From the NCBI GenBank assembly GCA_036511555.1, contig DATCBZ010000174.1:1-28016 (forward strand): a stretch of DNA of 28,016 nucleotides. Direction: 5' to 3'. This DNA is from Steroidobacteraceae bacterium (GTDB lineage: Bacteria > Pseudomonadota > Gammaproteobacteria > Steroidobacterales > Steroidobacteraceae). Under the pieces are notes generated by a model, which worked only from the letters and a program-made list of their open reading frames with translations, was not told where the DNA came from and did no database searches. This document shows, piece after piece, positions 1,976 to 28,016 of the stretch (its first letter is position 1; every line of letters starts with the position of its first letter). Both the position numbers and the translations under genes were made by a program.

Positions 1976-1981
1976 ATTATA
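1976..1981 (-). promoter_or_regulatory. Candidate sigma70 -10 box (TATAAT) for the DUF1820-purL unit
   Basis: Exact TATAAT on the minus strand about 37 nt upstream of ATG 1939, in a divergent intergenic gap. No convincing -35 box. Confidence 0.35.
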
Positions 1982-2058
1982 TGTCCGGACGCGCCGGGGA
2001 AGCGGGTGCGCGCGAAAGGCATTCAGATGAGAAAGGATTTACGACCTCTGGGGCAACC

Positions 2059-9073: not shown

Positions 9074-9102
9074 TCCACTAGGCTATCATCCCGGGGCGCG
9101 AT

Positions 9103-11421
9103 GTGCCTGCGCGGTTTTTAGAGCCTAATTTGCCGCGAATGAACGTGCCCGCCTCGCCCGCACTCGTTCGGTTTTTCCTGCGCGTCTTGAAGGCGCGCGG
9201 CTTTATCGCAGCAGCGTTCTTGCTCGCCGCCGCCGCCGGGCTTTACGGCGCAACGCAAGTGCCCAGTGATCCGGCAATCGACCGACTGATCGTGGCTGAC
9301 GACCCGGACGCACGTGCCGCACGGGCGTTGGAGAAGCTGTTTCCCGAGGGCGAGCATGCGCTACTCATGCTGGAGGCGCCCGATCCCTTGAGTGCGGCCG
9401 CGTTGCGCGCGGCCGATGACCTCACAAACAAGCTTTCGCAGCTAGCGCACGTCGAGGCGCTAAGTCTCGTGACGCTTTATCGGCACGCGGGAGCTACCGC
9501 CGCGATCGGGGCCGATGAGGCCCTACGGATACGCAAATTCGCGACCGGCACCTTATTGTTTCGGCGTGCCGGCCTTCTGGGCGACCATTACCTTGGCATC
9601 GCACTTGAGCTGCGGGTGCACTCGCCCGCCGAGCGCGACCAAGCGTTGAGTAACATCGAGGCGCTAACGAAGCCATTCGAGACCGGCGGCGGCCCTTTTA
9701 CGGCGCTGCGCAGGGTCGGATCACCGTGGCTCGATGCGTGGCTTGAGGCGAAGACTTCCACCGCATCGACGCACGTAATGCCGCTCTTCGGTGTATTTCT
9801 CATGGCGCTGATCGTCGTGGTATTTCGTTCGTGGCGCGCGCTCGCGGCCATCGTATTGACGCTCGGCGCCGTAGTTGCGATGGCCATGGGGCTCGCCGAT
9901 CCGTTGAGCTGGCCGAACACGATCGTCTCGGCGCTCGTGCCACTGACGGTGCTGGTTACGACGACGGCGACGCTTGTGTATATCCACACCCGTTACATCG
10001 AACGTCAGGATGGTCTGCCGCTCATCGAGCATCACGCACATGCACTTGCGAACAAATTCCTACCCTGCACCGCGTCGATGTTCGCAACCGCGATCGGCTT
10101 TGCGGCGCTGGCGGTGTCGGACATTCGCCCGATCCGGCAGATGGGCTTGTGGACAGCAAGTGGACTCATCGTGGCGTGGATCGGTAGCTTTACTTTATTC
10201 CCCGCGCTGCAATCACTGCTGCGCGCGCCGACGCGTGCCGAACGCGCGCCGGTAGGACGCATATTTAGCGCGTTCGTCGATCATTGGATACCATTTACAA
10301 GGCGCTACCGATGGCCATTGGTGGGAACCGCGATCGTCGTGATGCTGTGCGGCGCGGCGGCGCTTTTCGGCGTGCCGGGCAAACTCGCACCGCTCGCCCT
10401 GCAAACCGACTCTCTCGCCTATATCAATCCAAAAGTTGCGGCCGCCCGCGATACGCGCGAATTTGAGCGTACCAATGGCCTGACCGTCAGGGAGCTGTGG
10501 CTGCAAACAGCGGACGGGGAGGCACTGCAGCCGCAGTTTCTGCTGGCGATTGAAAAACTCACGCGGCGCCTGGAACGCGACCCACGCATCACAGCGGTCG
10601 ACGGGCCGACCTCGGCGCTACGTTGGGCGCAGTATTTCCAAACCGGCTCAGATCATTTGCCATCCGATCCGCAAGCATGGCCTAAGCTTGCCGCCGATCT
10701 GGAGCAGATTCTGCTGACGCAGCCTGGCGCGCGCGACTACGTCGACGTCGCGAGCCTCGCGAATGCGCGACTCAGCATTCGCGGCCGCGGCGCAGCCTTC
10801 GGCGGCCCGGGGGCAATGCGTGCGTTCATCGAGAACGCCTGGCACGAGGAGCAAATGCAGGACGCGGCCCTGCGCAATGTACACGCACGAGTCGCAGGCC
10901 AGGGCGTGCTCAATGATCAGATCACGCTGCGGTTGATACCAAGCTTGATTCAAAGCTTTGCGATCACGGCGAGCGTAATTTTCCTCGCATTCTTATTCGT
11001 GTTTCGCAGCCCCGCGGCGCGTTTGATGGCAATGATCCCCTCGCTGTTCGCGATTCTGGGCGCTTTTCTCCTGATGCGCGTGACTGGTATCATTTTGAAC
11101 ATCGCGACTATCCTCATCGGCTCGACCGTGTTGGGATCTACCGAGAATGATCAGATTCATTTTTTCTACCATTTCCAGGAAGGCCGGTCGACGGGTTCGA
11201 CCGCGGGGGCGCTGCGGCATGCACTGCTCGTGGCGGGCCGTCCCATCGCCTTTGCCACGCTGATCAACGCCGGCGGCTTTGTGGCTCTGAGCTTTTCCGA
11301 TCTTCCGCCGCTGCGTCAATTTGGCATTGTCTCTGCTTCGGCTTTCGTGCTGGCATTGCTTGCTGATTTTACTGCGCTGCTGGGAGCAATGTGGATCTTG
11401 GACCGCAAGTCGAAAACATGA
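9103..11421 (+). CDS. MMPL-family RND transporter; candidate BstA/HpnN-like lipid exporter
   Basis: 772 aa with two repeats of TM + periplasmic loop + five-TM bundle. Repeat markers SWRALAAIVL/SPAARLMAMIP, SDIRPIRQMG/SDLPPLRQFG and GSTENDQIH. Start is GTG 9103 or ATG 9139. Confidence 0.85.
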   Translation: MPARFLEPNLPRMNVPASPALVRFFLRVLKARGFIAAAFLLAAAAGLYGATQVPSDPAIDRLIVADDPDARAARALEKLFPEGEHALLMLEAPDPLSAAALRAADDLTNKLSQLAHVEALSLVTLYRHAGATAAIGADEALRIRKFATGTLLFRRAGLLGDHYLGIALELRVHSPAERDQALSNIEALTKPFETGGGPFTALRRVGSPWLDAWLEAKTSTASTHVMPLFGVFLMALIVVVFRSWRALAAIVLTLGAVVAMAMGLADPLSWPNTIVSALVPLTVLVTTTATLVYIHTRYIERQDGLPLIEHHAHALANKFLPCTASMFATAIGFAALAVSDIRPIRQMGLWTASGLIVAWIGSFTLFPALQSLLRAPTRAERAPVGRIFSAFVDHWIPFTRRYRWPLVGTAIVVMLCGAAALFGVPGKLAPLALQTDSLAYINPKVAAARDTREFERTNGLTVRELWLQTADGEALQPQFLLAIEKLTRRLERDPRITAVDGPTSALRWAQYFQTGSDHLPSDPQAWPKLAADLEQILLTQPGARDYVDVASLANARLSIRGRGAAFGGPGAMRAFIENAWHEEQMQDAALRNVHARVAGQGVLNDQITLRLIPSLIQSFAITASVIFLAFLFVFRSPAARLMAMIPSLFAILGAFLLMRVTGIILNIATILIGSTVLGSTENDQIHFFYHFQEGRSTGSTAGALRHALLVAGRPIAFATLINAGGFVALSFSDLPPLRQFGIVSASAFVLALLADFTALLGAMWILDRKSKT

Positions 11422-12526: not shown

Positions 12527-14431
12527 TCAGACGACGCTTACCGAACGCAGCCGCTCGGGAGCGTGCAGAGCCCACCAGCGCTCAACGCTTGCGCTCAAGC
12601 CCGCAAGATCAAGGCCGGCCGCGGCGAGGCAGCTTTCGCGTGAGCCGTGCTCGATAAACCGGTCGGGTATACCGAGCTGCAAGAGCGGCAGCTGCAGCCC
12701 CTGTACTGCGAGCAACTCGCTGACGCCGCTTCCGGCGCCGCCAATAATGGCATTTTCCTCGATCGTGACTATGGCGCGATGGCGGGCAGCCAGCGCGGTG
12801 ACAAGATCTTTGTCAAGTGGCTTGATGAAGCGCATATTGACAAGCGTAGCGTCCAATCGCTCGGCAATTCTCTGCGCGGAATCAACGAGCGCACCAAATG
12901 CCAGCAGCAGCAGCCCGCTGCGGCCTTCACGGCGCAACTGCGCGCGTCCGAGCGGCAGCGCCGTCATCTCCTCAGCGATTGGCACACCCGGACCCATGCC
13001 GCGCGGAAAGCGCACGGCCGCAGGACCGGCCAAAGTGCTCGCCGTGTACAACATCTGCCGACATTCGTTCTCATCGGCCGGCGCCATCACCACCATGTTG
13101 GGGATACAGCGCAGAAACGTCAGATCGTAACTGCCTTGATGGGTGGCACCGTCGCTGCCAACGAGCCCAGCTCGGTCCAGAGCGAACACAACGGGAAGAT
13201 TTTGCAGGGCGACGTCGTGTATCAGCTGATCGTACGCGCGCTGCAGGAATGTCGAATAGATTGCAACGATCGGCTTATAGCCTTCGACCGCAAGTCCGGC
13301 AGCGAAGGTCACCGCGTGCTGTTCGGCGATCGCCACGTCAAAATAGCGGTCGGGAAACTTTTTGGAAAATTCGACGAGTCCGGAACCTTCGCGCATCGCC
13401 GGCGTGATGCCAATAATCCGTGAGTCATGCGCCGCCATATCGCAGAGCCAGCGACCAAAGATCTGCGAATACGACGGGCCGGTACTTTTTTCCTTAAAAA
13501 TTGTGCCGCTCACCGGATCGAATGGTCCGGGCCCGTGCCATTTGATCGGATCCGCCTCGGCCGGCGCATAGCCCTTACCCTTGCGAGTCACAACATGCAG
13601 AAACTGCGGGCCGCGCAAGTTGGCAAGATTGCGCAACGTCGCAACGAGCGCCTTCACATCGTGGCCATCCATCGGGCCGATGTAATTGAAGCCCAACTCC
13701 TCAAACAGCGTGCCCGGCAGCACCATGCCTTTCAAGTGTTCCTCGGAGCGGCGCGCAAGCTCCCATACGGCGGGCATCTGGCGCAGAACTTTTTTACCGC
13801 TTTCGCGCAGATGAGCGTACATGCGCCCCGACAGGGCGCGCGCGAAATGATTCGACAGCGCTCCGACGTTCTCCGATATCGACATGTCGTTGTCGTTCAG
13901 AATCACCAAAAGATCCGCGGGTAATGAGCCCGCATGATTGAGCGCCTCAAAGGCAAGCCCCGCGGTGAGTGCACCGTCACCGATGATTGCGACGACGCGG
14001 CGACTCTTGCCGCTGCGCTCTGCAGCCACTGCCATGCCAAGCGCCGCACTGATCGAAGTGCTGGAATGACCGACGCCGAAGGTGTCGTATTCGCTTTCGC
14101 TGCGTGTTGGGAAAGGCGCAAGCCCGCGATCCTGCTTGATAGTGTGCAGCTGGTCACGGCGGCCGGTCAGAACCTTGTGCGGATACGCTTGGTGGCCGAC
14201 GTCCCAGACCAAGCGGTCATGCGGTGTATTGAACACGTAATGCAGTGCAATCGTCAGCTCGACCGTGCCGAGCCCTGCGGCAAAATGACCGCCGCGCGTG
14301 GCGACGCTATGGATCAGGAACCGGCGCAGTTCCTCTGCCAGGGGGGCAAGTTTCGTCACCGGCAAGCGCCGCAGGTCTGCGGGTAGCCGGATTGAGTCGA
14401 GCAACCCGTTTTTATCGGCGGAGGAAGTCAT
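12527..14431 (-). CDS. dxs: 1-deoxy-D-xylulose-5-phosphate synthase
   Basis: 634 aa. [40 protein letters not shown] motif [15 protein letters not shown]...[38 protein letters not shown]. Confidence 0.98.
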
Positions 14432-14566: not shown

Positions 14567-15712
14567 TTAGGTCATCGGCTTGCCACAGCGAGCCAATACG
14601 CCGCGCAGATCACGCAGCGCCGGAAACACCTCGTTGTTCCAGTCCGCGCCCTGTGCATCATATGCACGCTGCTCGAACTCCACGATCTCTTTGTCCTCGC
14701 GGAAAATGTTCTCGGTGAACCAGACCACGAATGGCCACACGGCATGGATTAACCCTGGCAAGCGCGGTTTCTTCACGGACAGATACCCATAGGTACGGTT
14801 GGTGCGCTGCTCGGCATCGAGCGGCGTATAACCGAGCCAAACCTCGAGCACGGGATCATTGCTTTGTTGAATGTCACGGCCCACCCACACTTTCAGACTT
14901 TGCGTCGGATAGTCGGTGCGGATCCGCATGTGATCAGAGAAGTCCTTTTTCGCCTCGCCGCGTTTGCGCATCAAGTCCACAATTACCTGTTCGCCGACGG
15001 AAGACTTCCCCGCAGTACGGCTAAAACTGTATTCAACCTGGGCCCATGTCTCGCCATGCTGCCGTCCCAGGCAATGAGCTCTAATTGAACCCATCTGTTT
15101 GCGATGCATGAACTGATGGTTCATGTCGAACAGATTCTCGTGCATGAAGGTGTAGTGGCAGGCGACCTCGCGGTTCAATCGCCGCGTCTTGTAGTCACTG
15201 CGCTGCGAGGAACCCAGCCCGGTCGGCAGCCGGGCCTCCGCCAGGACCGGATCACCCGGGAAGACGAAGATCAGGCCGTCAACCTCGCGCACCGGATAGC
15301 TCTTCACGCCGTTTGGCAGTCGCTCCGACCCTAGGTACGGCACGCTGACGCACTTGCCGCTGTGGTCGTAGGTCCAGCCATGGTAGTGACATTTGAGCTG
15401 TTCGCCGCTGACGACCCCCAGGTGCAGCGGCACCTGACGGTGGGCGCAGCGGTCCTCGAGCGCGAACACCCGACCGCTCTTACCGCGATACAGAGCGATG
15501 GGTTCAGCGGCAAAACGGCGCCCAAGGGTTTTACCCACTTTCAACTCATCGCACCACGCCACGGGGTACCAGTAATCCGGGTGCGCGCCCACGCGCCGCA
15601 GATCGAAAGCGTTGGGCGAATTGGCCGTACGCATGGTGACGAGATTGGAACTGTCTTCGGACATCAGGTCCTCGAAACATCGGTCCAGGACGAAAGAGTA
15701 GCGCGTCGACAC
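14567..15712 (-). CDS. Rieske non-heme iron oxygenase, alpha subunit
   Basis: Rieske motif CAHRQVPLHLGVVSGEQLKCHYHG (CxH-x16-CxxH) and mononuclear Fe motif ENLFDMNHQFMH, plus a distal EDKEIVE. Start is GTG 15712 or ATG 15664. Confidence 0.9.
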   Translation of the reverse strand: MSTRYSFVLDRCFEDLMSEDSSNLVTMRTANSPNAFDLRRVGAHPDYWYPVAWCDELKVGKTLGRRFAAEPIALYRGKSGRVFALEDRCAHRQVPLHLGVVSGEQLKCHYHGWTYDHSGKCVSVPYLGSERLPNGVKSYPVREVDGLIFVFPGDPVLAEARLPTGLGSSQRSDYKTRRLNREVACHYTFMHENLFDMNHQFMHRKQMGSIRAHCLGRQHGETWAQVEYSFSRTAGKSSVGEQVIVDLMRKRGEAKKDFSDHMRIRTDYPTQSLKVWVGRDIQQSNDPVLEVWLGYTPLDAEQRTNRTYGYLSVKKPRLPGLIHAVWPFVVWFTENIFREDKEIVEFEQRAYDAQGADWNNEVFPALRDLRGVLARCGKPMT

Positions 15713-15860: not shown

Positions 15861-17198
15861 TTAAAACGGATAATTGAGGCCGGTGAATGCCGCTATGCCC
15901 TCGCTGCCGTAGCCGATGTCGACGTACCCGACAACAAACGGCCGGGCGACTCCGCGGAATCCGACCCCATAGACGTGGTGCAGCTGTTGCAAAGGAAATG
16001 TGCCTGCGTGCGCAAAGACACGCCCGAGATCGACGAACGGAGCCACTTCGAGATCGACAAAGGTCGAGATTGCGTTGAACGACGCTACCGTGCGGCGCAA
16101 TTCGACCGTGGTCGAAAACGAATCGCGGTCGTAAAAGCGACCGGCGCCAAAGCCCCGCAACGGCTGCTCGCCACCGATGTCGCTGCGATCGCCGCCCACG
16201 CTGCTCAGCGCCCAGAATGGCACTTCGTGCGAGCTTGGCAGGTAGCGTAATGCCGTATGCACCGCGAGCACCGTCTTGGGCGCAACTGACCAGAAGGCGC
16301 GTGCATCCACTCCCGTTTCGCTGTACATCGAATCGTTCAAGAGACCGCTGCGGGTTGCAAGGCCGCCGTAGGCAACCCATTCCATGCCGCTCGTAGACAC
16401 GGTCAGGTCGTCGCGCGTGTCATAGACGATCGACATGCGATTGAGCCTCAAGTCATTGGTACCAACGCCCAGAACATGACTGAAGCGAGTGTCAATTGAT
16501 GCGACGTGCTGCAAAGTCCCCGGCTGTACGTCCACGACCTGCACTCGCCCGGTATACAAAATTTGCCATGCGTGATTCAGATTGAAGCCAATCTGCACCT
16601 GCGCGAATTGCTGCTCATTGGTGTAATTTGTTTCCGCCGTCGCCGGCGACTCGTTGCCAATACCGTAGAAACGCGGCGTACCGTCGCGATCGAAGATGAC
16701 GCTTGCGTTTATTGACCAACGCCGATCACGCAACCGACCGTCCGAATATGCGGCGCTGAAATCTCGTTCCACGCGCTGCTTGATGCCGGCAATTAGCGAC
16801 CACTGCTCATCCGCGGACGGATAGGAGTAGACACGCCCGTGCGCGCCGAATCCAAAGTAGGGGTTGTAGAGAAAATCCGGCGCGATGATGCGCCGGATGT
16901 CGTGATGCTCATCCGTTTGCACCCACGTCGGCAGAACGCCAACGGTCGTACCGCTGTCCGGATCGACGCCGATGGACGGAATCGGGATAAACGGGGCGGT
17001 CGCAGGATTGAACCATCGCGATATACCGACGTGCGCAGCTGGCCCCTGCGGCAGTGGTGCGGGCACTACCGGCGGCGGCGCCGACGCTTGCGCTGCGACA
17101 TCATCCGATTCGGCCCACGACGGCACCGCCAGAGCTGCGGCGAGGCCGCCGCAGCACAGCGCGATCGCAACTGGCCTCGTGGTTTTTGTTGTTTGCAT
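15861..17198 (-). CDS. Omp85/BamA-TamA-family outer-membrane beta-barrel lacking POTRA domains
   Basis: Signal peptide ending PSWA, short Pro-rich linker, amphipathic beta strands, Omp85 loop-6-like LRGFGAGRFYDR, and C-terminal ...FTGLNYPF ending in Phe. 445 aa is too short to carry POTRA domains. Confidence 0.7.
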   Translation of the reverse strand: MQTTKTTRPVAIALCCGGLAAALAVPSWAESDDVAAQASAPPPVVPAPLPQGPAAHVGISRWFNPATAPFIPIPSIGVDPDSGTTVGVLPTWVQTDEHHDIRRIIAPDFLYNPYFGFGAHGRVYSYPSADEQWSLIAGIKQRVERDFSAAYSDGRLRDRRWSINASVIFDRDGTPRFYGIGNESPATAETNYTNEQQFAQVQIGFNLNHAWQILYTGRVQVVDVQPGTLQHVASIDTRFSHVLGVGTNDLRLNRMSIVYDTRDDLTVSTSGMEWVAYGGLATRSGLLNDSMYSETGVDARAFWSVAPKTVLAVHTALRYLPSSHEVPFWALSSVGGDRSDIGGEQPLRGFGAGRFYDRDSFSTTVELRRTVASFNAISTFVDLEVAPFVDLGRVFAHAGTFPLQQLHHVYGVGFRGVARPFVVGYVDIGYGSEGIAAFTGLNYPF

Positions 17199-17223
17199 AA
17201 CGGCAGGCAGAGCAGTTTAACCC

Positions 17224-18309
17224 TCAGCGAGTCGACCCAAGTAACTGGGCGAAGCCCTGCAATAGCCTGTCGATGTCCGCCGCCATCAAATCGCCCATCG
17301 TTGAAATGCGAAACAGCACTTTCGACAACGGCCCTTGGCCTGCATAAATCACAAAGCCCTGCGCCTTCAAAGCATCGTGCAAGCGCGCATAGCTAAGACC
17401 AGCGGGCAATCGGTAGGCTCGTAACCCCACCGACGACTCCGCGGGCGGCACGGCCGGCTCGATGCCAAATTTGGCAAGACCCGTGCGCACCTGCTCGGCG
17501 AGCGCCGCATAGCGTTCGTAGCGGCCACGCCGGCCGCCCTGCTCGCCGAATTCTCGCAGTGCCTCGACGACCGCATAGAACACCTGCACGGCGGGCGTGA
17601 ACGGCGTGTCACGCTGGTCTTGCAGACGTGCGAGACGGGTCACATCTAGATAATAGGCCCGGCTCACGGCACCCACGAGCGCGCCGCGGCGCACGATCAC
17701 GAAAGAAACCCCCGGCACCCCATGCAGGCATTTATTGGCAGTCGCCGCCACGGCCGCAAGGCTTGCGTCGGCAAAATCCACCACTTCGGCGCCGAAGCTG
17801 CTGACGCCGTCAACGAGCATACTCACGCTGCGCATTCGGCACAGCTCACCCAGTTCCTGCAAGCCATTCAGCCGTCCGGTGGTCGTCTCGTGATGCACGA
17901 CTGCGAGGTGTGTAAAGCGCGCGTCGGCGGCTGCGTTATCCAGCCGCGCCGCGATTGCCGTCAGACTCGGCGCCTGCATCCAGGGACAACTGACGCAGTC
18001 GTGCGCAATCCCGTATTGCACGCAAATCTGGGCAATGCGCTCACCGTAGACGCCATTTTCTACGATCAGCAATCGGCCGTTCTCGGGAACCAGCGCGGCG
18101 ACCATGGCTTCAACGGCAGCGGTTCCGGACGCCGTCAGCAACACGGCGGACCATTCGGCAGGATCGAGCTCATAAGTTGCCAGCAAACGGGCTCGCGCTT
18201 CATCCTGCAGGTCAAAAAACTCGCTTTCACGATGGCAGAGGTCCGGTTGTAACAGACTGTGGCGCACACGCGGCGTCAACGTGACCGGGCCTGGATTCAG
18301 CAATAGCAT
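17224..18309 (-). CDS. aepZ: 2-aminoethylphosphonate aminotransferase, biosynthetic context
   Basis: Class V aminotransferase motifs LLNPGPV, CHRESEF, SGTAAVE, NGVYGERI, HHETTTG, DGVSSFG, TANKCLHG. One-base start/stop overlap with the decarboxylase at 18309. Confidence 0.9.
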   Translation of the reverse strand: MLLLNPGPVTLTPRVRHSLLQPDLCHRESEFFDLQDEARARLLATYELDPAEWSAVLLTASGTAAVEAMVAALVPENGRLLIVENGVYGERIAQICVQYGIAHDCVSCPWMQAPSLTAIAARLDNAAADARFTHLAVVHHETTTGRLNGLQELGELCRMRSVSMLVDGVSSFGAEVVDFADASLAAVAATANKCLHGVPGVSFVIVRRGALVGAVSRAYYLDVTRLARLQDQRDTPFTPAVQVFYAVVEALREFGEQGGRRGRYERYAALAEQVRTGLAKFGIEPAVPPAESSVGLRAYRLPAGLSYARLHDALKAQGFVIYAGQGPLSKVLFRISTMGDLMAADIDRLLQGFAQLLGSTR

Positions 18310-19499
18310 TACTGAGCGTCCGCCGCAGAATGGAAATGCTGCATCAGCCGTTTCTTAGCTTCGATCGGCCTGATGCTCGGCCGCGGCAAATCCCGGGGTG
18401 TGCCGCTGCGCGTCAGGAGACGCGCAAAACGCGCGCCATCAAGCGGCGCGGCTTCCAGCCACGTCGGCAGTTGTTGGAGCTCATCGCTCTCAAGCGCCGA
18501 TGCATAGCCGCAGGCGGCGGCGACCTCCGCGAATGACACGCACGACGACACCGTCGCCTGCCCGCCAGTTGAATCGTGTACACCGTTGTCGAGCAGCAGG
18601 TGCTGCAGATTGGGTGGCCCATAGGCTCCCACGGTTGCCAATGCCCCCATCCGCATCAATGCCGCGCCGTCACCATCGAGCGCGATCACGCGCAAGTCCG
18701 GGCGTGCCAGAGCAAGGCCAAGAGCAAGAGGCACGACGCATCCCATCGATCCCACCATGTAGAAGTGGTTCGGCCGATCAGCAATGGCGTACAGTTCCCG
18801 TCCGCAAAATCCGGTGGACGCAAGCAGTGCCGTCGTGGCCGGCGGCGATTGGCCGACCACTTGCCGCAACACGTCGCGACGCGATGGACGCGCGTCGGCT
18901 GCAACGCCCGTCAGTGCCACTACCGCCTGCGCCCCGACAGAGCGTCGCTTTATCAGGCCTGCGGAGGCTCGCAGTGCATAGGCCGCGACACTGCCTTTTT
19001 GCATTAGTAGCGCATACGGCCGGCCGGTCGCATCCATATGCGCCGTCGCGCGCTCTAACGCCGGGCCGATGGCATCGACCGCCGCCGGAAACAGCTCCCA
19101 GGGAATCTGCATCGCATCCAACAGAGCCGTCGTGATTGAGCCCATGAGCGCGTGCTGTGGTTCGTCCGCTACTCCCGGCTGCCCGCGCCACGTTTCGATC
19201 AACAGTTGCGGCAGCCGGAACACCCAGGTCAGTGACGTCAAGGGGCTCACCGCATTGCCGAGTCCGGAGTTCTGCATCATCGTGACGCCGCGCTGCCGCG
19301 CCAAACCCGCATCGCCTGCGAGCGCCACTCCGGCAATCAGCGCTACCGCGTCGCCTTCATTGGCCATCGAGAGGTAGTGCAGCGACGCATCCTGCAACAC
19401 GTAGTTAATGAAGGGCGTCAGGTAAGAGCACGGCACTCCCGCATACCAGAAAAATCCGCGCGCGCGCGCCGCTTCGACAAAGTGATGTGCTTCAATCAT
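18309..19499 (-). CDS. aepY: Phosphonopyruvate decarboxylase
   Basis: From ATG 19499: [75 protein letters not shown] and the TPP motif DGDGAALM...DNG. The track's longer 5' extension overlaps pepM. Confidence 0.93.
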
Positions 19500-21207
19500 G
19501 GTCCGCCGCGCCAAGCGCCGCGTCGGGGGCAGTGCCGAGCGGCGTCTGCGCGTGGGCGAAATCGACCGCGCTATGAAAATCGTCGATGTCATTGACGCCG
19601 CGCCAATGCCCGTGCACATACAGCACTTCGATCGCAGCGCCAGCGGCGATCAGGGCATTCAGAAGGGCGGGCATATCGAGTTTGTCGAAGTCTGGCCGCG
19701 ATTGCAGCGCTGTGACGACACTCGTCAGCATCACGAGGCCGCGCCGGCTTACTTTAAACATGCCGATCCAGCGACCGTGCGCAGTATCGTCTTTGGCAAG
19801 CAAGTGCGGCACCGCCCCATTGACGTCCGCGGCGCTTGCTACACGCGCGAGCAGCACTGGCTTGCCGAACAAGCCGCGGTCGTCGCTACGAGAACAGTAG
19901 GCGAAATCACGCACAGTACGATTGTTGGTTCCCGCCACGGATGAATCGACCAGCAACGAGAAATCCGCCGCACTATCGAGAAGATCGCGCAGCACGTAGC
20001 TGCGAAACAGCAAATCACCGTAGGCAATGACCGTGTCCGCTTCGAGCCCATCGATGGCACAGGCGAGCGAGGCAAGTTCGCCCGTTTGCGCATGTCGCTC
20101 GTTCACGATCAATTTGATACCGGCGCTATCGATCGCATCGGCACGATAGCCTCCGACGACAGGGATATCGTTGATGTTCTCTTTTTTAAAAGCGTCGATT
20201 AGCCAGCGCAACAAAGATTTTCCGGCGATCGGCAGCATGACTTTCGGGCGGTCAGTCGTCATCGCTTCAAGACCCCGGCCGCGGCCCGCAGCAAGCACCA
20301 CCGCAGCGCGCGAAGAGCCGGCCACCGACAAATAGAGCTTTTCCGCGGCAGAGTACTCGTCTGCATCCTGCAGCCGGAAAATCTCGTTGACCGGCACAAT
20401 CCGGTCCTCGACGTTGACCAGCGTCTGACTTTCGTAGATCTCCTTGGCAACAGTCTGCATCGCCGACGCGGCGGCACGCAGCATATGATTAGCCCAGATC
20501 ACGACGCTGATTCCCGCGTCGCGGAAGACCTCAGGCGGCGTACTGTAATAGCGGGTCGGCACGATCACGAGCGGGCCGCGCCGTGCCCATTCGCGCGCGA
20601 AAGCAACGATCTCATCGGGCTTGGCAAGCTTGCTGTGTATCAGAATCGCATCGGCACCCGCGCGGCGATAGGCTTCCGCGCGGCGCAGCGCTTCCTCCAT
20701 GCCCCAGCCGGCGATCAGCGCTTCGACGCGCGCGACAATCGAGAAATTGGGATCGATCTGCGTGTCTTTGCCGGCGGCGATTTTACCGGCAAATTCCTCA
20801 ATGTCCGCAAGCGGCTGGCGCTCACCGTTTAAGAAACTATTGGTCTTGGGAAACTGCTTGTCCTCAATGCAGACGCCAGCAATATCGCGCTGCTCGAGCT
20901 TGCGCACCAAACGGCGCATGTTGTTGAAATTGCCATAGCCAGTATCGCCATCGAGCAGGATTGGCAAATCACTCGCGTCGGCCATGAACTCCAGCATGTC
21001 CACCACCTGGGTCCAGCTCGCCTCATTATTATCGCGCACGCCAAACTGCGCCGAGATCGACAGGCCGGAGGCCCAGATTCCTTTGAAGCCCGCTTCGCGC
21101 GCAATGCGCGACGACAGGCCATTATGTGCCTCCATTAGGAATTCGAGCTGCGGACTGAGCAGCATCTGCCGCAATTGTGCGCTGCGTGAGGGCACCGCAG
21201 CGGTCAT
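19492..21207 (-). CDS. aepX: Phosphoenolpyruvate mutase fused to a C-terminal nucleotidyltransferase-like domain
   Basis: PepM signature [10 protein letters not shown] (EDK-x5-NS), [36 protein letters not shown]-terminal domain begins [22 protein letters not shown] and contains YGDLLF. Confidence 0.96.
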
Positions 21208-21971
21208 CGCGAAAGCTCTGTCAACGGTTGCAGCTGCGGCAGAATTTCGGCGGCCGCGCGCCGTACATCATCCGGAAAATCGATCTCGATCCATGGGGCG
21301 CCAGTCACATCGCTGACTTCGAACGTCTGGCTGCGCTCGCGCAGCAGATCGCGCACTGCCTCCTCATGCGGCATGCTGGCATGATTGCCGTCGATGTAGC
21401 CCGCCACCAGTGCAGCCAATCGCCGCGCGCCGGCTTGGTTGAAGCGAAAGAATCCGACCGACTCACCGATCGTGTCGAACTGCAGCGTGGCGGGCAGCTG
21501 CTTGCGAAGTTCCACCGGCACGCCACGATCCACGCAAAGCTTGACGGGCTCATCGCCAGGCTCAAAGTCGCGATCGATCAACAGCCGGTTGACGGGCGGC
21601 TCGCCTGCGACCAGCGCACTCATGATGCGCTCATCGTAAAGGACATCGGCATCCATCAACAAAATGCTGCCGCCGCGCGTCATCGCCTCGGCAGCGGCGT
21701 GAACGGTCAAAACACTGCCGAGCTCAAAACGCTTATTCAGCACAATTTCGGGACGCGGCTGCCAGCCGAGCCGATCAAGTTCAGCTTCAATGAGTTCGTG
21801 CCGAAAACCCAGTGCCAGAACGACCTCGGTGACACCGGCGGTTTTGAGCATCTGCAGATGGCGTTCGAGAAGGCTCACACCGTCGAATCGCAACAGACAC
21901 TTCGGCGACTGCTGATCTTCGGAGAGCTGCAAACGCGACCCGTGACCCGCTGCAAGAATGATAGCGCGCAT
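21204..21971 (-). CDS. LicC/PntC-like cytidylyltransferase (NTP transferase family)
   Basis: [14 protein letters not shown]...[31 protein letters not shown]. Stop overlaps the pepM start (ATGA). Alternative start at 21995. Confidence 0.85.
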
Positions 21972-22084
21972 GAGAATCCAAGCAAAATCAAGCATAAGAA
22001 ACGCGACAGGAACATTACCATACCGTGTGCAGCATCCCGCACTGCACTGGCAAGGCCTTGCAGTCTTGCGCCGTCCGCGACTGC

Positions 22085-23080
22085 TTACGGTGGCGCCGCA
22101 CGTGCCGCACCCGCAGCGGAGCGCTCGGAGAGGTGCAGGTAGAGGAGTCCGGGCAGCCCCAAGATAAGTTCGCGCGCGCGTTTTGCGAGCGACAACGCCA
22201 GCGCTGCGTCCGCCGGCAAGCCTACCAACGGCGCGAGCAGCAAATAGCCTCCCTCTTGCACGCCAAGTGCACCGGGAACGGCGAACGCGGCGCCGCGAAT
22301 CGCCTGGCCCAGACTTTCCAAGAGCAGCGCGTCAGTCCAGCCGAGCGGGTGTCCAAGCAGTTGCGCAATCAGAAACACCTCGCCCGTGCCGACGAGCCAA
22401 CCGACGAGGCTGAGTACGAAGCTCGCCGCCACCCGAGCACTTCGACCGTAGGTCAGCTGCACCGCGACGTCCATTGCCTCCGCTTGCGTCCTCAACTGAG
22501 ACCAATCCCGCTTACCGGAGAAACGACTCGCAAGACTCATCAGCTTGGCAAAAAAGCCGCGCCGCTGTAGAAGATAAAACCCCCCGACCTGTAGTGCGAG
22601 CAGCGCGCTTGCGAGCAGCGCAGAAGTGCGCAGAACACTTTGGGAAAAGTGACTCGCATGCGCACCCAGGAGCACAACCCCCAGCAGCGCAAAAAGAATC
22701 TGTGCGAAGGTCTGCAGCGTCGTACTAACGGTGATGGCCGCGGCAGCATCCTGCATGCGCATGCCGCGCTGCGCCAGGTGGCGAACCATTAAGACCGGAC
22801 CGCCTAGCTGCCCGGCTGGCAGGAGACTGTTCGCGGATTCGCCCGCCCAGCGCGCGAGCAATGCCTCACGCATTGGTCTGCGCGCCATTGCGCGAACAAA
22901 CAGCACACGGATTGCTGCAGCGTCGAGCACCAATGGCAGCAAATGGAACAACGCAATCAGCAGCAACCCCCAACCGGCAAGCGCTAACGCCGCAACGACC
23001 GCCGGCAGCCCTTGCGAGACGAGCACGCCGACGAACAGCAGCACACCGGCTGACAGGAGCCACGCTGCCGTGCGCGTCAT
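22085..23080 (-). CDS. HpnL-like polytopic membrane protein (lysylphosphatidylglycerol-synthase TM / flippase-like family)
   Basis: 331 aa, mostly hydrophobic, with RWAGESANSLLPAGQLGGP, AAITVSTTLQ, VGWLVGTGEV, ESLGQAIRGAAFAVPGALGVQEGG and SLAKRARELILG, typical of the UPF0104/HpnL family. Confidence 0.75.
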   Translation of the reverse strand: MTRTAAWLLSAGVLLFVGVLVSQGLPAVVAALALAGWGLLLIALFHLLPLVLDAAAIRVLFVRAMARRPMREALLARWAGESANSLLPAGQLGGPVLMVRHLAQRGMRMQDAAAAITVSTTLQTFAQILFALLGVVLLGAHASHFSQSVLRTSALLASALLALQVGGFYLLQRRGFFAKLMSLASRFSGKRDWSQLRTQAEAMDVAVQLTYGRSARVAASFVLSLVGWLVGTGEVFLIAQLLGHPLGWTDALLLESLGQAIRGAAFAVPGALGVQEGGYLLLAPLVGLPADAALALSLAKRARELILGLPGLLYLHLSERSAAGAARAAPP

Positions 23081-23958
23081 GCGCGTCCGGTACGTCTTTG
23101 CAGTAGGCGACGAAATACCTGCCGGAAGCCGAAATACGCAACCGCATCTTTCATGTTGGAGATGAGGCGCCAGCCCGCGTTCATGCGCGGATCAGTGACG
23201 TACTCGAACGTCAAAGAAACACCCACTTCGCCCGCTGCCAGAGGCGTGATCCGATGGCGCAGCTTGTCGCCATCAAAAAAAACCATGCCACCTGGGGCGA
23301 TCTGCAGCGACCCCGACACCCCCGCCATACCTGGTTCGCGAGTGTGCAGTTCGTAATCAAGCCGGCACGATGAGTCATCGATGATTCCGAGCAACAGTGT
23401 GTAGCGACGCCCGGCATAGTAGGAGGTGTCGTAATGCCAACCAATGTGGTCGCTGGGCAGCGTGTAAAAATACAGCGCATAGGCGTGCGCGTCTTGCGCC
23501 GGCGACAGCCGCAGGTGCTCACCGCAAAGTTGTCCGAGCCACTCGAGCAACGCGGGCGCGCGATACAGTTCGGCGATGGCCGGGGCAAGTTCGTCTATCG
23601 AGTGGCGGCTGACGCTGCCGCCTTGCTTGTGGCCAGGTAAATAATTGCGATGCACCGATGCCTGCACGCTCGAAACGGCAGCAATGAGCTGTGCGTTCAT
23701 CTGCTGGGTCAGGAAATCCGGCAGGTATATGAAGGCTCCCTGCGCTGCAAACTTGCGGCGCAGCGGCTCCATGTCGAGGGCTCGCAGGCGCGCGCACATT
23801 GCACTATTGGCGTCTACGGGCAGCGAGGACACCTCTTCATCCGCGCCCGGCAACGCCGGATCCGACCCGGTTTCGAGCGCGGCGTTTTTTATTGGGCTAC
23901 CGTGGCGTCGGCGTGGCGGGAAGCAAACGCAGGCGCCGCCGGATCCGCAACCAGTCAA
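23077..23958 (-). CDS. Fe(II)/2-oxoglutarate-dependent oxygenase; true start uncertain
   Basis: Facial triad GWHYDT (HxD) with distal LRHRITPL, plus beta-rich RYTLLLG and MVFFDG. The track start overlaps the upstream gene by 62 nt; the real start is probably downstream (e.g. ATG 23799 or a nearby GTG). Confidence 0.75.
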   Translation of the reverse strand: MTGCGSGGACVCFPPRRRHGSPIKNAALETGSDPALPGADEEVSSLPVDANSAMCARLRALDMEPLRRKFAAQGAFIYLPDFLTQQMNAQLIAAVSSVQASVHRNYLPGHKQGGSVSRHSIDELAPAIAELYRAPALLEWLGQLCGEHLRLSPAQDAHAYALYFYTLPSDHIGWHYDTSYYAGRRYTLLLGIIDDSSCRLDYELHTREPGMAGVSGSLQIAPGGMVFFDGDKLRHRITPLAAGEVGVSLTFEYVTDPRMNAGWRLISNMKDAVAYFGFRQVFRRLLQRRTGRA

Positions 23959-24562
23959 TCAGCACCCAAATCGCGAATAAGGGGGCGCAGATGGAGGCGG
24001 CGATCAGCAACGGTGCAACGCCATCGCAGACCGTCACGAGCGGCAGCAAATATAGAACGTCCTCGGTTTCAAAGCCGCCGAACGAAGCTTGGCGAACCGC
24101 AGCTTTTCCGACCATCTCTTCGATGCGCATGCGCAAAAAGAAAATCAATGCAATTGCGGCGCCGGCCGCAACGCCGAGCAGCGCGGGCGGAAATTGCAGC
24201 GCCACTCTTCCTTTCGCCACGACCCCGATGCCGATTGCGAGAAACAGCAGAATCGTTACGGCGGCATCGCTTGCAAGATCATAGAGGTGTCCGAACCGGC
24301 TCGTTTTCCCGCTTATGCGGGCGAGTTCGCCGTCGGCGTGATCGGCAAAGTTCGAAAGCACGAACAGCAGCGCGGCCAAATTCGACCAGGTATAGGTGCC
24401 GGGCACGAAAGCGGCGGCGGCCGCGAGGCCTAGGAGCAGGCGCAGCGTCGTCAGATGATTAGGCGTCACCCAGGTCTCGCTCAGCATTGCAACCAAGCGG
24501 TGTGCTAGGCGCAAATCCCAAGGACGCTGCGCCGATAAGGCGGAATGTGTGGGTGTGGACAT
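23897..24562 (-). CDS. CDP-alcohol phosphotransferase
   Basis: TPNHLT, and the family signature DHADGELARISGKTSRFGHLYDLASD (DxxDGxxAR-x8-GxxxDxxxD), followed by several TM helices. Confidence 0.9.
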   Translation of the reverse strand: MSTPTHSALSAQRPWDLRLAHRLVAMLSETWVTPNHLTTLRLLLGLAAAAAFVPGTYTWSNLAALLFVLSNFADHADGELARISGKTSRFGHLYDLASDAAVTILLFLAIGIGVVAKGRVALQFPPALLGVAAGAAIALIFFLRMRIEEMVGKAAVRQASFGGFETEDVLYLLPLVTVCDGVAPLLIAASICAPLFAIWVLIDWLRIRRRLRLLPATPTPR

Positions 24563-25012
24563 TTTTACTTAGTCGATTCGACGCGTCGCCGACGGACCCG
24601 CAGGATTTTACGCTGGTTTTCGCGGGGCGCTAGGCGCGCACATGGCCGTGCGGTTGTGTTGGTATTATTGAACTCATTGAATTTAAACTAAAAAGTCATA
24701 CTTACTCTGCCTGAGTGCGCAGCCGGGCGCTCCGCCCGAGGTGCCAGGCCCCACCGCACGGTCCTCCTCAAAAATGCCGGCTGGTGGAAAAGTATGCGCG
24801 GTGCGAGCGCACCGCTGCGGTGGCGCAAACGCAACGTTATGACTTCGCTCGCGCGGGTCGAGGAGCGCCTGGACTCCTTCGTCGCGATCGGCAAGCGCAA
24901 GCTTGGGTTTGAGTTGAAGATGTGCGCAAAGGCCCTACAGGGAGGAGCGCCGCGATCAGTTTCGCCGGTTGGCGCAACTTATTGCGGGTAACTTCCTGAC
25001 GCAAAGCCCCTC

Positions 25013-25049
25013 CGTTAGGTTAGGTTGCAGCACCATTTACCACCTAACG
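25013..25049. promoter_or_regulatory. 8-bp inverted repeat upstream of squalene synthase; candidate operator or hairpin
   Basis: CGTTAGGT (25013-25020) and ACCTAACG (25042-25049) are exact reverse complements with a 21-nt spacer; the left arm overlaps a GTTAG direct repeat. Confidence 0.3.
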
Positions 25050-25086
25050 TGTTCCTATTCCTACGATTTCCCGGGATACTGTCTGT

Positions 25087-26256
25087 ATGGATTCCGTCAC
25101 TTCCGATGCAGTCTATCAAGATCGGATTCTCCCCTACGTCTCGCGCACCTTTGCGCTGACGATCCCACAACTGCCGCCGGCACTGCGTACTGCGGTGACC
25201 AGTGCCTACCTGCTCTGTCGGATCGCCGACACGATCGAGGATGAGCCGGCGTTGTCGGCCGCAGAAACGCTTGCGTTTCTGCAACGCTTTCGTGCGACGG
25301 TATCCGAGTGTGCCGAGTCAGCACCGTTGGCAAGGGATCTGTCGCGGCGTCTGTCGGACCGCACATTGCCCGAAGAGCGCGATCTTGTGAATAACATGGA
25401 GCGCGTCATTCGCATGACGGGCGCTCTGGATGAGCTGCCACGATCCGCCATTCAGCGCTGCGTCGATCTCATGTGTTATGGCATGCCGCATTTCCAACTG
25501 AGCGCAAGCGTACGGGGGCTTGCCCGCTCGAGCGACCTCGACGACTACTGCTACTACGTCGCTGGCGTGGTCGGCGAGATGCTCACCGAGCTGTTTTGCG
25601 CCCACTCTGCGGACATCGCACGGCGGCGTCCTGCCCTGCAAAGCCTGGCGGCCTCTTTTGCGCAGGGGCTGCAGATGACGAATATTCTAAAGGACGTCTG
25701 GGAAGACCGCAGCCGCGGCGCCTGCTGGTTGCCGCAGGATGTCTTCACGCGCCATGGGGTGGACCTTGCACCACTGTCGCCGGAGAGCCAAGACGCGGGT
25801 TTCGCTGCGGGAATGTGCGAACTCACTGCAGTCGCACACGCGCACCTTCGTAATGCGCTTGCCTTTACGCTGCTGGTTCCGGCAAAGGAAACCGGCATCC
25901 GGCGCTTCTGTCTGTGGGCCATCGGACTTGCCGTCCTCACGCTGCAGAAAATTCATGGGAATCCGCAGTTTACGGCCGGAAAGGAAGTAAAGGTGTCGCG
26001 CTCCGCCGTTGCCATGACTCGCCTCCTGACAAGCGCTACCGTGCGCAGCGATTGGCTTCTTAGACAACTTTTTGAATTCGCCGCGCGCGGCCTGCCGCTC
26101 GCACCACTTCCGCCCGCCGTGCCGCGAACAACGACCGTTCTCGGGGCGTCCGAGCCGATCCCGCTCCATGGCCGGCATGCGCCGCGCCCCCAGCCCGACG
26201 CGAGCGCGCCGCTTGAGCGCGTGCGCCGGCGCTCCGACGGAAGTGCAGCCACATGA
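25087..26256 (+). CDS. sqs: Squalene synthase, single-enzyme (FPP to squalene) type
   Basis: VSRTFALTI, YLLCRIADTIEDE, YCYYVAGVVG, GLQMTNILKD, RRFCLWAIGLAVLTL and VKVSR. These resemble SQS-type enzymes such as Methylococcus SQS more than CrtB/HpnD. Confidence 0.8.
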   Translation: MDSVTSDAVYQDRILPYVSRTFALTIPQLPPALRTAVTSAYLLCRIADTIEDEPALSAAETLAFLQRFRATVSECAESAPLARDLSRRLSDRTLPEERDLVNNMERVIRMTGALDELPRSAIQRCVDLMCYGMPHFQLSASVRGLARSSDLDDYCYYVAGVVGEMLTELFCAHSADIARRRPALQSLAASFAQGLQMTNILKDVWEDRSRGACWLPQDVFTRHGVDLAPLSPESQDAGFAAGMCELTAVAHAHLRNALAFTLLVPAKETGIRRFCLWAIGLAVLTLQKIHGNPQFTAGKEVKVSRSAVAMTRLLTSATVRSDWLLRQLFEFAARGLPLAPLPPAVPRTTTVLGASEPIPLHGRHAPRPQPDASAPLERVRRRSDGSAAT

Positions 26257-28016
26257 GTGTTTCGCGCACACGCACGGCGCCGGGAACACCTAAGCCCAAG
26301 ACTGCACGCTCGGAATTGTTGTCGCATACTCTCGCGCGCGTCAGGGAGTCATCGCTGCTTGACCGCTGCATTGCGGCCGCGCGCGACGCTCTCGTCGATG
26401 CGCAGCACGAGCATGGCTACTGGTTATTCGAGTTGGAAGCGGACTGCACGATTCCCGCCGAATACATTTTGATGATGCATTTCCTCGACGAGATCGACGC
26501 GCCGCTTGTGGCCAAGATCGCCGTCTACTTGCGCGCTCATCAGGCGGAGCACGGTGGCTGGCCGCTCTACCACAACGGCGACTTCGACTTAAGCTGCAGC
26601 GTCAAGGCATATTTTGCTTTGAAGCTCGCAGGCGACGATCCGGACGCTGCACATATGCGACGCGCACGTGCAGCAATTCTGCAGCGCGGCGGTGCCGCGC
26701 GTGCGAATGTGTTTACGCGCATCGCACTGGCACTGTTCGGGCAGCTGCCCTGGCGCGGCGTACCTTACATTCCCGTGGAAATCATGCTGCTGCCACGTTG
26801 GTTTCCCTTTCATATCGACAGGGTTTCTTACTGGTCCCGCACGGTCATGGTGCCGCTCCTGATTCTGTGCACACGAAAGCCCATCGCTAAGAATCCGCGC
26901 AACATCAACATTCGCGAGTTGTTCACGACGCCACCGGAGGAGGAACGCGACTACTTCCGTGGTAGTCGCCGGCAGCCGGGATTTCTTGCCAAGCTCTTCC
27001 TGGTGCTGGATCGAATCGGCCGCACCATAGACCCGCTTGTGCCCCGAGCCGTGCGCGCACATGCAACGCAGCGCGCGCTTGACTGGATGCTCGAGCGGTT
27101 GAACGGCGAAGAGGGCCTGGGCGCAATCTTTCCGGCAATGGTCAATGCCTTGGAAGTGATGGCGGTACTGGGATTTGACAGCAACGATCCGCGGCGTGTC
27201 ACGGCCAAACGGGCACTGCAGAAGCTCCTCGTGGTCAGTTCGTCAAGCGCCTACTGCCAGCCATGCGTCTCCCCGGTCTGGGACTCTGCATTGGCAGGCC
27301 TTGCTATGCAGGAAGCCGGCTGCGCCGTGTCGGTCGACGCATCGGTTCGAGCGCTCGACTGGTTGAAGTCACAGCAGCTGCTGGATGATCCGGGTGATTG
27401 GCGCATTCGCAGGCCAGAGTTAGCCGGCGGCGGATGGGCGTTTCAGTTCGCGAACAGCTATTACCCCGATCTTGACGATACCGCGGTGGTCGCTTGGGCC
27501 ATGCACCAGTCGCGTGATAGCGAGCGCTATACCGAGACTGTCAACCGCGCTCTTGATTGGCTGGTGGGAATGCAAAGTAGCAACGGCGGCTTTGCGGCAT
27601 TTGATGCGGACAATACCTACTATTACCTGAATGAGATTCCGTTTGCCGATCATGGTGCACTCCTTGATCCGCCGACGAGCGATGTGAGTGCGCGCGTCGT
27701 CGCGGCGCTCGCACGCATTGCTCGACCGCAGGACAAAGCGGCGCTCGATCGAGCAATCGTTTACTTGCGCAGTGAGCAGATGGCCGACGGCTCTTGGTTC
27801 GGCCGCTGGGGCACAAACTACATTTACGGAACGTGGTCGGTATTGACGGCCTTCGCCCAAGCAGGCATCAGCGCGACTGACCCTGCAGTGCGTAAAGCGG
27901 TCAGCTGGCTGACTGCACGCCAGAACGAGGATGGTGCCTGGGGTGAGAGCAACGCAACATACTCGCAGCAGAGCTATGTTGTCGCGGACAAGTCGCCAAA
28001 TACACCGTATCAAACC
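26253..28016 (+). CDS. shc: Squalene-hopene cyclase; runs off the right edge
   Basis: Not in the track (no stop in the window). ATG 26253 overlaps the sqs stop (ATGA). Manual translation gives GYWLFELEADCTIPAEY, GGWPLYH, ANVFTRI, SYWSRTVMVPL, YCQPCVSPVWD, GGWAFQF.N.YYPDLDDTA (DXDD protonation motif), MQSSNGGFAAFDADN and GSWFGRWGTNYIYGTW. Confidence 0.97.
   Translation, partial: MSVSRTRTAPGTPKPKTARSELLSHTLARVRESSLLDRCIAAARDALVDAQHEHGYWLFELEADCTIPAEYILMMHFLDEIDAPLVAKIAVYLRAHQAEHGGWPLYHNGDFDLSCSVKAYFALKLAGDDPDAAHMRRARAAILQRGGAARANVFTRIALALFGQLPWRGVPYIPVEIMLLPRWFPFHIDRVSYWSRTVMVPLLILCTRKPIAKNPRNINIRELFTTPPEEERDYFRGSRRQPGFLAKLFLVLDRIGRTIDPLVPRAVRAHATQRALDWMLERLNGEEGLGAIFPAMVNALEVMAVLGFDSNDPRRVTAKRALQKLLVVSSSSAYCQPCVSPVWDSALAGLAMQEAGCAVSVDASVRALDWLKSQQLLDDPGDWRIRRPELAGGGWAFQFANSYYPDLDDTAVVAWAMHQSRDSERYTETVNRALDWLVGMQSSNGGFAAFDADNTYYYLNEIPFADHGALLDPPTSDVSARVVAALARIARPQDKAALDRAIVYLRSEQMADGSWFGRWGTNYIYGTWSVLTAFAQAGISATDPAVRKAVSWLTARQNEDGAWGESNATYSQQSYVVADKSPNTPYQT

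Follow-up and report, generated by a model that had tools for sequence, protein, structure and literature searches.

Predicted phosphonolipid genes head-to-head with hopanoid biosynthesis genes in a Steroidobacteraceae genome: a candidate hopanoid-tailoring operon

Gene clusters that combine phosphonate biosynthesis with a CDP-alcohol phosphotransferase are widespread: the 'Burkholderiales_CDP-OH' gene-cluster families, equated with the Group 1 phosphonolipids of Yu et al. 2013, account for 318 of 882 RefSeq neighborhoods of the phosphoenolpyruvate (PEP) mutase gene ppm, about a third, and no member's product has been characterized (Li & Horsman 2022, PMC8942020). Fusions of the mutase (Ppm, here PepM) to a cytidylyltransferase are its commonest form (PMC6697681). 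On the hopanoid side, HpnL is enriched near the squalene-hopene cyclase gene shc with its function listed as open (bioRxiv 10.1101/2025.07.29.667474; PMC12583986), and the supplement of the first of these studies records 1409 occurrences of a CDP-alcohol transferase family no more than 20 open reading frames (ORFs) away from 3662 shc genes and gives a correlation of PepM with SHC in Gammaproteobacteria (r = 0.43), while the main texts of both papers are silent on phosphonate genes and on the CDP-alcohol transferase. Here, we describe an operon in which the two subjects meet, on a 28,016-nucleotide (nt) stretch of DNA from an uncultured soil bacterium of the Steroidobacteraceae (Gammaproteobacteria; assembly GCA_036511555.1, contig DATCBZ010000174.1; hereafter the window) that is the entire contig of a metagenome-assembled genome 78.7% complete. 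On sequence comparison the operon is the Steroidobacteraceae copy of the Group 1 phosphonolipid, or Burkholderiales_CDP-OH, cassette, an already catalogued gene set: its seven genes from transferase to transaminase are collinear, at 59-73% protein identity, with those of Mycetohabitans rhizoxinica (on megaplasmid pBRH01) and of Burkholderia multivorans and Cupriavidus (on replicons listed as plasmids in PLSDB). We propose that this operon, which stands head-to-head with the squalene synthase gene sqs and shc, is a candidate hopanoid-tailoring module.

Gene identities were taken from an ORF listing and from Pfam and NCBIfam profile scans of the window proteins, which confirmed eight codirectional genes on the minus strand (15861-24562). 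In transcription order they encode a CDP-alcohol phosphotransferase, the putative head-group transferase (23897-24562; PF01066, 52.9 bits); an Fe(II)/2-oxoglutarate (2OG) oxygenase of the hydroxylase type (23077-23799, longest ORF to 23958; PF23169, 31.7 bits); an HpnL-family, flippase-like membrane protein of the LPG_synthase_TM type (22085-23080; TIGR03476, 319.9 bits; PF03706, 94 bits); a stand-alone PntC-like cytidylyltransferase, NT2 (21204-21971; PF12804, 51 bits); PepM fused to a LicC-like cytidylyltransferase domain, NTP_transf_3 (19492-21207; TIGR02320, 395.9 bits; PF12804 on residues 302-414); phosphonopyruvate decarboxylase, Ppd (18309-19499, longest ORF to 19619; TIGR03297, 426.3 bits); 2-aminoethylphosphonate (AEP) transaminase, AepZ (17224-18309; TIGR03301, 364.6 bits, cutoff 360.8); and an Omp85-superfamily outer-membrane barrel (15861-17198; PF01103 only, 49.9 bits). 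The middle genes are tied together by four start/stop overlaps, of 4 nt between oxygenase and HpnL, 4 nt between NT2 and PepM, 8 nt between PepM and Ppd (assuming that Ppd starts at ATG 19499) and 1 nt between Ppd and AepZ. That Ppd start, overlapping the PepM stop, is likely, and the TIGR03297 match begins at residue 55 of the longest ORF. An overlap between the transferase and oxygenase genes was rejected as a longest-ORF artifact: orthologues of the oxygenase align only from about ATG 23799, its likely start. Across the divergent intergenic region (24563-25086) lie, on the plus strand, sqs, of the single-gene type (25087-26256; PF00494, 191 bits), and shc (26253-28016; TIGR01507, 737 bits, cutoff 431), the sqs stop overlapping the shc start by 4 nt and the contig end cutting shc. 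A preliminary description of this DNA had read an operon of eight codirectional genes with start/stop overlaps, sharing a divergent region of about 520 bp with sqs-shc; all ten genes were found at the coordinates it gave, and the region measures 524 bp. Its enzyme assignments, from PEP to AEP and on through CMP activation and alcohol transfer to a flippase-like protein and a barrel, are likewise upheld by profiles and motifs.

The enzymes that would make, activate and transfer the head group retain the signatures of their families. The Ppm motif, of the type EDKxxxxxNS, is intact in PepM, which is 72-73% identical to Burkholderia and Mycetohabitans aepX, and the best Protein Data Bank (PDB) match of its C-terminal domain is LicC (1jyk). 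NT2 has as its best solved relative the AEP cytidylyltransferase PntC of locus Tde1415 (6pd1; full-length alignment, E 7.5e-11), and shows recognizable similarity to the PepM-fused domain (31% identity) over only about 60 N-terminal residues. The transferase, 65% identical to the B. multivorans and Mycetohabitans cluster gene, carries the complete motif D-x2-DG-x2-AR-x8-G-x3-D-x3-D and scores far above the PF01066 gathering cutoff of 22, with residues D74, D77, G78, A81, R82, G91, D95 and D99 invariant across four orthologues; its closest solved relatives are AF2299 (PDB 4O6M) and IPCT/DIPPS (PDB 4MND), at E values of 4e-8 to 1e-4. In the oxygenase, H..D..H and R are invariant among 12 orthologues, and its AlphaFold model (pLDDT 90.6) lies nearest, at TM of about 0.7, to the HalD/HalB/BesD amino-acid halogenases and a hydroxylase homologue. 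The BesD/HalA-D enzymes act on free lysine and ornithine, and a halogenase of that type was rejected for the window protein because its facial triad retains the aspartate that such halogenases replace by Gly or Ala; the protein is thus probably a hydroxylase of a small amine-bearing substrate, a role in keeping with the 1-hydroxy-AEP head group predicted in the literature (PMC8942020).

The two remaining proteins concern the membrane. The HpnL-family protein exceeds the curated TIGR03476 cutoff (319.9 versus 195.65 bits), as do the Mycetohabitans cluster orthologue (329.8) and an shc-adjacent paralogue (277.2) in G005, the nearest full-operon relative, and a copy at locus L139 in another gammaproteobacterial family scores 171.4, below cutoff. 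Since the model is best matched by phosphonate-cluster copies, the HpnL name was rejected as independent evidence for a hopanoid link. In the barrel, PF01103 (residues 143-403) is the sole Pfam domain, behind a signal-peptide-like N-terminus; Pfam detected none of the POTRA domains of BamA/TamA-type Omp85 insertases, and NF047779 reached 124.8 bits against a cutoff of 200. Its gene is kept at the operon end across Steroidobacteraceae loci and was not seen beside the seven-gene cassette at the Burkholderiaceae loci examined.

Evidence for a hopanoid connection comes from the distribution of the transferase, which we followed in two evenly drawn sets of genomes, 400 from Gammaproteobacteria (the class sample; family threshold E <= 1e-22) and 201 from Steroidobacteraceae (the family sample). 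In the class sample the transferase family occurs in 27 genomes from 17 families, a spread that makes a single-ancestor artifact unlikely; 26 of these carriers have shc, against a background of 66/400 (16.5%), and the 27th, a genome 62% complete, has hpnH. PepM is present in 26/27 carriers, and leaving out genome G254, which is flagged as unpublished, gives hopanoid genes in 26/26 and PepM in 25/26, while among the 38 class-sample genomes with PepM 28 are hopanoid producers. The family sample repeats the pattern, with shc in 42 of 201 genomes and the transferase in 22. Of these carriers, 21 also have shc, and fragments of hpnH were found in the 22nd, whose genome is 74% complete; among the 159 family genomes in which no shc match was found, this 22nd carrier is the only one with the transferase family. 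Each of the 40 carriers tested encodes HpnH, or else HpnG next to shc or PepM. The transferase family is thus restricted to hopanoid producers in the two samples, and a functional tie to hopanoids is strongly supported by these comparisons, which bear out that part of the preliminary description and leave the acceptor molecule a candidate beside which the diacylglycerol alternative stands.

The genomic link behind this tie takes the form of co-occurrence and recurrent linkage rather than fixed adjacency, as far as gene order can tell. The cassette lies beside or inside hpn operons in at least five arrangements, one of them in an alphaproteobacterium, and at least ten class-sample genomes have PepM no more than 10 kb from shc or hpnH. 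The layout divergent from sqs-shc is shared by the window and two genomes of the same genus, G001 and G003; the cassette instead follows ispA-sqs-shc-hpnG-hpnA on the same strand at eight further Steroidobacteraceae loci and in G046, a complete genome. At L139, L142 and L146, from three other gammaproteobacterial families, the transferase gene sits inside the hopanoid string, adjoining hpnA, with oxygenase-NT2-PepM-Ppd-AepZ close by on the same strand, and at L139 it is flanked by hpnN and hpnA, the stop and start codons overlapping (shc-hpnG-hpnN-transferase-hpnA). In Mycetohabitans the cassette is followed by dxs-MMPL-ispH-hpnH-hpnA, and in Roseomonas marmotae (Alphaproteobacteria) the genes for PepM, Ppd, an HpnL-like protein, transaminase and transferase lie between hpnN and ispH-hpnH-hpnG-shc-hpnEDC. 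A neighbor-joining tree of the transferases, built without support values and hence tentative in all it says, places a Steroidobacteraceae clade beside the Burkholderiaceae cassette copies, in a larger group that includes the hpnA-adjacent copies of the hpn strings, with phosphonate and hopanoid contexts interleaved throughout. One complete genome (G376) has five transferase-family matches, three of them clustered in about 7 kb (loci L141, on contig G376:C10, and L163, on G376:C6), which suggests diversification of head-group transferases.

Though the window itself ends inside shc, its relatives indicate what probably follows. In G001, shc is followed by hpnG-hpnA-idi-hpnH-ispA, and hpnH lies about 2.5-2.8 kb beyond shc in the same-genus genomes G001, G002 and G003, with hpnG and hpnA between them in G001. 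By the gene order of this same-genus genome, a full operon for extended hopanoids very probably lies beyond the point where the contig breaks off.

Relatives also show that the AEP genes can be lost while the remainder of the module stays. Among the 80 closest loci, all three AEP genes are present in 44, none in 22 and some in 7, with 7 that cannot be judged, and PepM is absent genome-wide from 7 of the 21 other family-sample carriers, including genomes 100% and 99% complete. G046 retains an intact transferase-oxygenase-HpnL-NT2-Omp85 string just beyond its hopanoid string, parted from hpnA by an MMPL gene on the opposite strand. Deletion scars lie between NT2 and Omp85 in G001, which keeps about 60 nt of the aepZ 3' end (L020, 15065-15144), and in G003, which keeps about 300 nt (L022, 12974-13264). 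The loss of pepM-ppd-aepZ in the window's genus is therefore secondary, on this sequence evidence, and happened at least twice, since the deletion end points of G001 and G003 differ; an insertion of the AEP genes into the window genome was rejected, as both relatives retain aepZ 3' remnants. The AEP-synthesis genes thus appear dispensable in this lineage, and because the transfer, flip and barrel genes are kept after their loss the module must also work with another donor, presumably scavenged AEP or phosphoethanolamine. A similar remnant may exist elsewhere: at L165 (G329:C3, 12104-13232) partial AepZ-like and NT2-like matches, covering about half of each query, lie beside hpnA-hpnG-shc in a genome without a PepM match, and may represent another decayed phosphonate module inside a hopanoid cluster.

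We propose the following route. PepM, Ppd and the transaminase would make AEP; the oxygenase would probably hydroxylate a small amino-phosphonate; the PntC-type cytidylyltransferase would make the CMP conjugate; and the CDP-alcohol phosphotransferase would move the phosphonyl head group onto a hydroxyl of a membrane lipid, after which the HpnL-family protein would flip the product across the inner membrane and, in Steroidobacteraceae only, the Omp85 barrel would act at the outer membrane. The lipid acceptor is more likely than not an extended hopanoid, through a bacteriohopanepolyol hydroxyl, which would make the cassette a hopanoid-tailoring module. We infer every chemical step after AEP, as well as the identity of the acceptor, from sequence. 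Given the gene identities and the orthology to a catalogued cassette, the operon very probably builds an AEP-type head group and transfers it to a membrane lipid. That the acceptor is a hopanoid polyol and not diacylglycerol is a reading we favor by a modest preference, because the transferase is absent from the hopanoid-less genomes of both samples and is wired into hpn operons, as would be unexpected of a diacylglycerol enzyme. The more specific proposal, in which the product of this commonest of bacterial pepM cluster families is a phosphono-hopanoid with AEP or 1-hydroxy-AEP on a side-chain hydroxyl of a bacteriohopanepolyol, flipped by HpnL, and in which the pepM-less G046, G001 and G003 make the phosphate analogue, has in our estimate an even chance of being correct. 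The preliminary description had suggested looking for lipids that carry +123.009 Da as the mark of hydroxy-AEP; by computation phosphoethanolamine, an isomer of hydroxy-AEP, would give the same shift, which therefore does not establish a C-P bond.

Several observations weigh against a phosphonate-bearing hopanoid and have to be set beside the evidence above. The usual reading of the cassette is a diacylglycerol-type phosphonolipid (PMC5987646), and our literature search found neither a reported phospho- or phosphono-hopanoid nor a paper linking phosphonolipids with hopanoids. The earlier remark that no phosphonate-bearing hopanoid has been described therefore stands as to the molecule, though for Nitrosococcus a 'phosphonoterpene' has been raised as a possibility (PMC8942020, PMC7285500); apart from that one sentence, the connection between phosphonolipids and hopanoids was absent from the literature searched. 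The solved relatives of the transferase carry no information on the acceptor. The persistence of the module in genomes without PepM means that AEP is not the sole, or not an obligatory, donor. The co-occurrence counts include related genomes and so overstate independence and significance. Conserved adjacency of pepM and shc in relatives, on which the preliminary description had staked its reading, holds only in part: shc was called in 20 of the 21 other family-sample carriers and lies less than 10 kb from the transferase in 5/20, adjacency to shc in the class sample is 5/26 (many contigs being short), in G005, with 80% PepM identity, shc lies on a different contig from the one that holds all eight genes, and B. 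multivorans has no hpn gene within 14 kb of the cassette. Finally, reading downstream for hpnH and hpnG, as the preliminary description had advised, finds both beyond shc in same-genus G001; in the genome of the window itself no HpnH scored above cutoff and only weak radical-SAM matches were found, the genome being incomplete and its contig ending inside shc.

CDP-alcohol phosphotransferases with soluble CDP or CMP donors, such as the CPT/EPT enzymes, classically use diacylglycerol. A glycerophosphonolipid of the conventional sort, in which diacylglycerol or alkyl-acylglycerol carries (hydroxy)AEP and the hopanoid link arises through joint deployment, export or regulation, would follow this precedent, would agree with the published prediction for the cluster family (PMC8942020, PMC5987646), and would sit comfortably with the cassettes of B. 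multivorans and G005 that are not next to hpn genes. Yet diacylglycerol is universal and the transferase family was found in 0 of about 490 genomes without hopanoid genes across the two samples, its gene is coupled between hpnN and hpnA by overlapping stop and start codons at L139, and no glycerophosphonolipid has been found in Burkholderia despite the abundance of the cluster (PMC8942020), and we therefore hold this explanation to be possible but rather unlikely. A different acceptor, such as ceramide (as in Bacteriovorax stolpii), lipid A or the lipopolysaccharide core, a polyprenol-linked glycan or a protein, is suggested by the one bacterial hydroxy-AEP lipid whose structure has been solved, a sphingolipid (cited in PMC8942020), and the barrel at the operon end could suit an outer-membrane or surface target; we consider it improbable, given that no sphingolipid or glycan-assembly genes lie beside the cassette at the loci examined, that its constant partners are hpn genes, isoprenoid genes and the HpnL-type flippase-like protein, and that the B. 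stolpii cluster falls into another gene-cluster family (PMC8942020). That the sqs-shc neighborhood is a chance juxtaposition without functional meaning would accord with the fluid gene order around the cassette in Steroidobacteraceae, where only 10 of the 80 closest loci have shc within 10 kb. Linkage that recurs in no fewer than five gene orders, spread over three proteobacterial classes, with complete hopanoid co-occurrence, argues the other way, and chance is already disfavored, to the point that we think it very improbable.

The divergent region and the surrounding genes add context to the proposed hopanoid-tailoring module. A scan of 24563-25086 with the sigma-70 consensus gave no match, terminator-like hairpins are present, and two same-genus genomes share a conserved leader block just upstream of sqs (about 25010-25086) that contains a GTTAGGT...ACCTAAC-type inverted repeat. 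This block may serve as an operator; past the hopanoid operon of G001 there is a TetR-like gene. An Rfam scan of the whole window found no family. Downstream of the barrel gene that ends the operon, on the minus strand, a Rieske/mononuclear-iron oxygenase (14567-15712; PF00355 and VanA_C) is a distant relative of SdmA (NF052579, 156 bits, below cutoff). Its occurrence follows that of hopanoid genes: of the 38 family genomes (out of 201) that carry it, 37 are also shc-positive. At 40 of 80 related loci it stands immediately upstream of the transferase, and in another family (L153, L154) it adjoins PepM-Ppd-AepZ-transferase strings at which no oxygenase or NT2 homologue was detected. The SdmB model, for its part, gives 240 bits on HpnA of G001 (L020, 6407-7393), so that an SdmA/SdmB-like pair accompanies a hopanoid cyclase and not a sterol cyclase, and may carry out oxidative tailoring of hopanoid methyl groups.

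Next in the window, also on the minus strand, is dxs, for isoprenoid precursor supply (12527-14431; TIGR00204, 912.6 bits), a gene that likewise comes after the AEP genes in Mycetohabitans and stands just past them, on the opposite strand, at L139. Farther out, at 7632-11421, an MMPL transporter gene diverges from BstB-like (PhnD-fold) and BstC-like genes, with weak matches far below the sterol-transporter cutoffs; this trio, also found beside the cassette in L040, L071 and L074, may serve to export the lipid product. A TagH-type FHA protein, of a kind associated with type VI secretion, is encoded on the plus strand between purL and pyruvate carboxylase (1981-3300). It is the only type VI secretion gene found in the window, and the tagH-purL neighborhood also flanks the cassette in L064, L067, L073, L075 and L091.

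A hopanoid acceptor, if confirmed, would mean a new class of charged hopanoid lipids and would give a role to HpnL as well as to the unnamed transferase of hpn operons. If the phosphonolipid puzzle and the hopanoid puzzle are one, zwitterionic hopanoids would be a class found in soil, plant-associated and clinical Proteobacteria, with a bearing on outer-membrane biology, on phosphorus cycling through C-P bonds in very stable lipids, and on the reading of hopanoid biomarkers. The pepM-less natural variants offer ready-made comparisons, and cultured carriers exist for testing, among them Burkholderia thailandensis, B. multivorans, Mycetohabitans rhizoxinica and Roseomonas marmotae.

Compared with known systems, the operon is closest to the Group 1 cluster, with which it shares, in identical order, the Ppm-PF12804 fusion, Ppd, AEP transaminase, 2OG/Fe oxygenase, second PntC, CDP-alcohol transferase and LPG-synthase-TM protein. 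It differs in its Omp85 eighth gene, in coming from a different order of Gammaproteobacteria, in its head-to-head placement with sqs-shc, and in the two deletions of the three AEP genes in its genus that left the remainder in place; together with the Rieske partner, the added barrel gene, the layout and the natural pepM-less siblings are what is peculiar to this locus. A cluster in lichen-associated Nostoc (PMC5987646) has, by its published description, the same gene set, including a gene labeled hpnL, but the product proposed there is a glycerolipid, with no link made to hopanoids. The 'phosphonate-terpene' region of Nitrosococcus (PMC7285500; GCF 731, PMC8942020) is described as an AEP-type ppm near squalene synthase/cyclase genes, and the 'phosphonoterpene' suggested for it came from an antiSMASH hybrid call and one sentence, without survey or chemistry. 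Among characterized enzymes, IPCT/DIPPS (4MND) and AF2299 (4O6M) similarly pair a cytidylyltransferase with a CDP-alcohol phosphotransferase, and IPCT is also a relative of NT2, but those enzymes join soluble inositol phosphates and their similarity is low. PntC (Tde1415, 6PD1; Rice et al. 2019, PMC6697681) aligns with NT2 over its full length at low identity, and NT2 persists in genomes that lack PepM. The canonical hpn clusters, finally, are represented by sqs-shc in the window and continue as hpnG-hpnA-idi-hpnH-ispA in G001 of the same genus.

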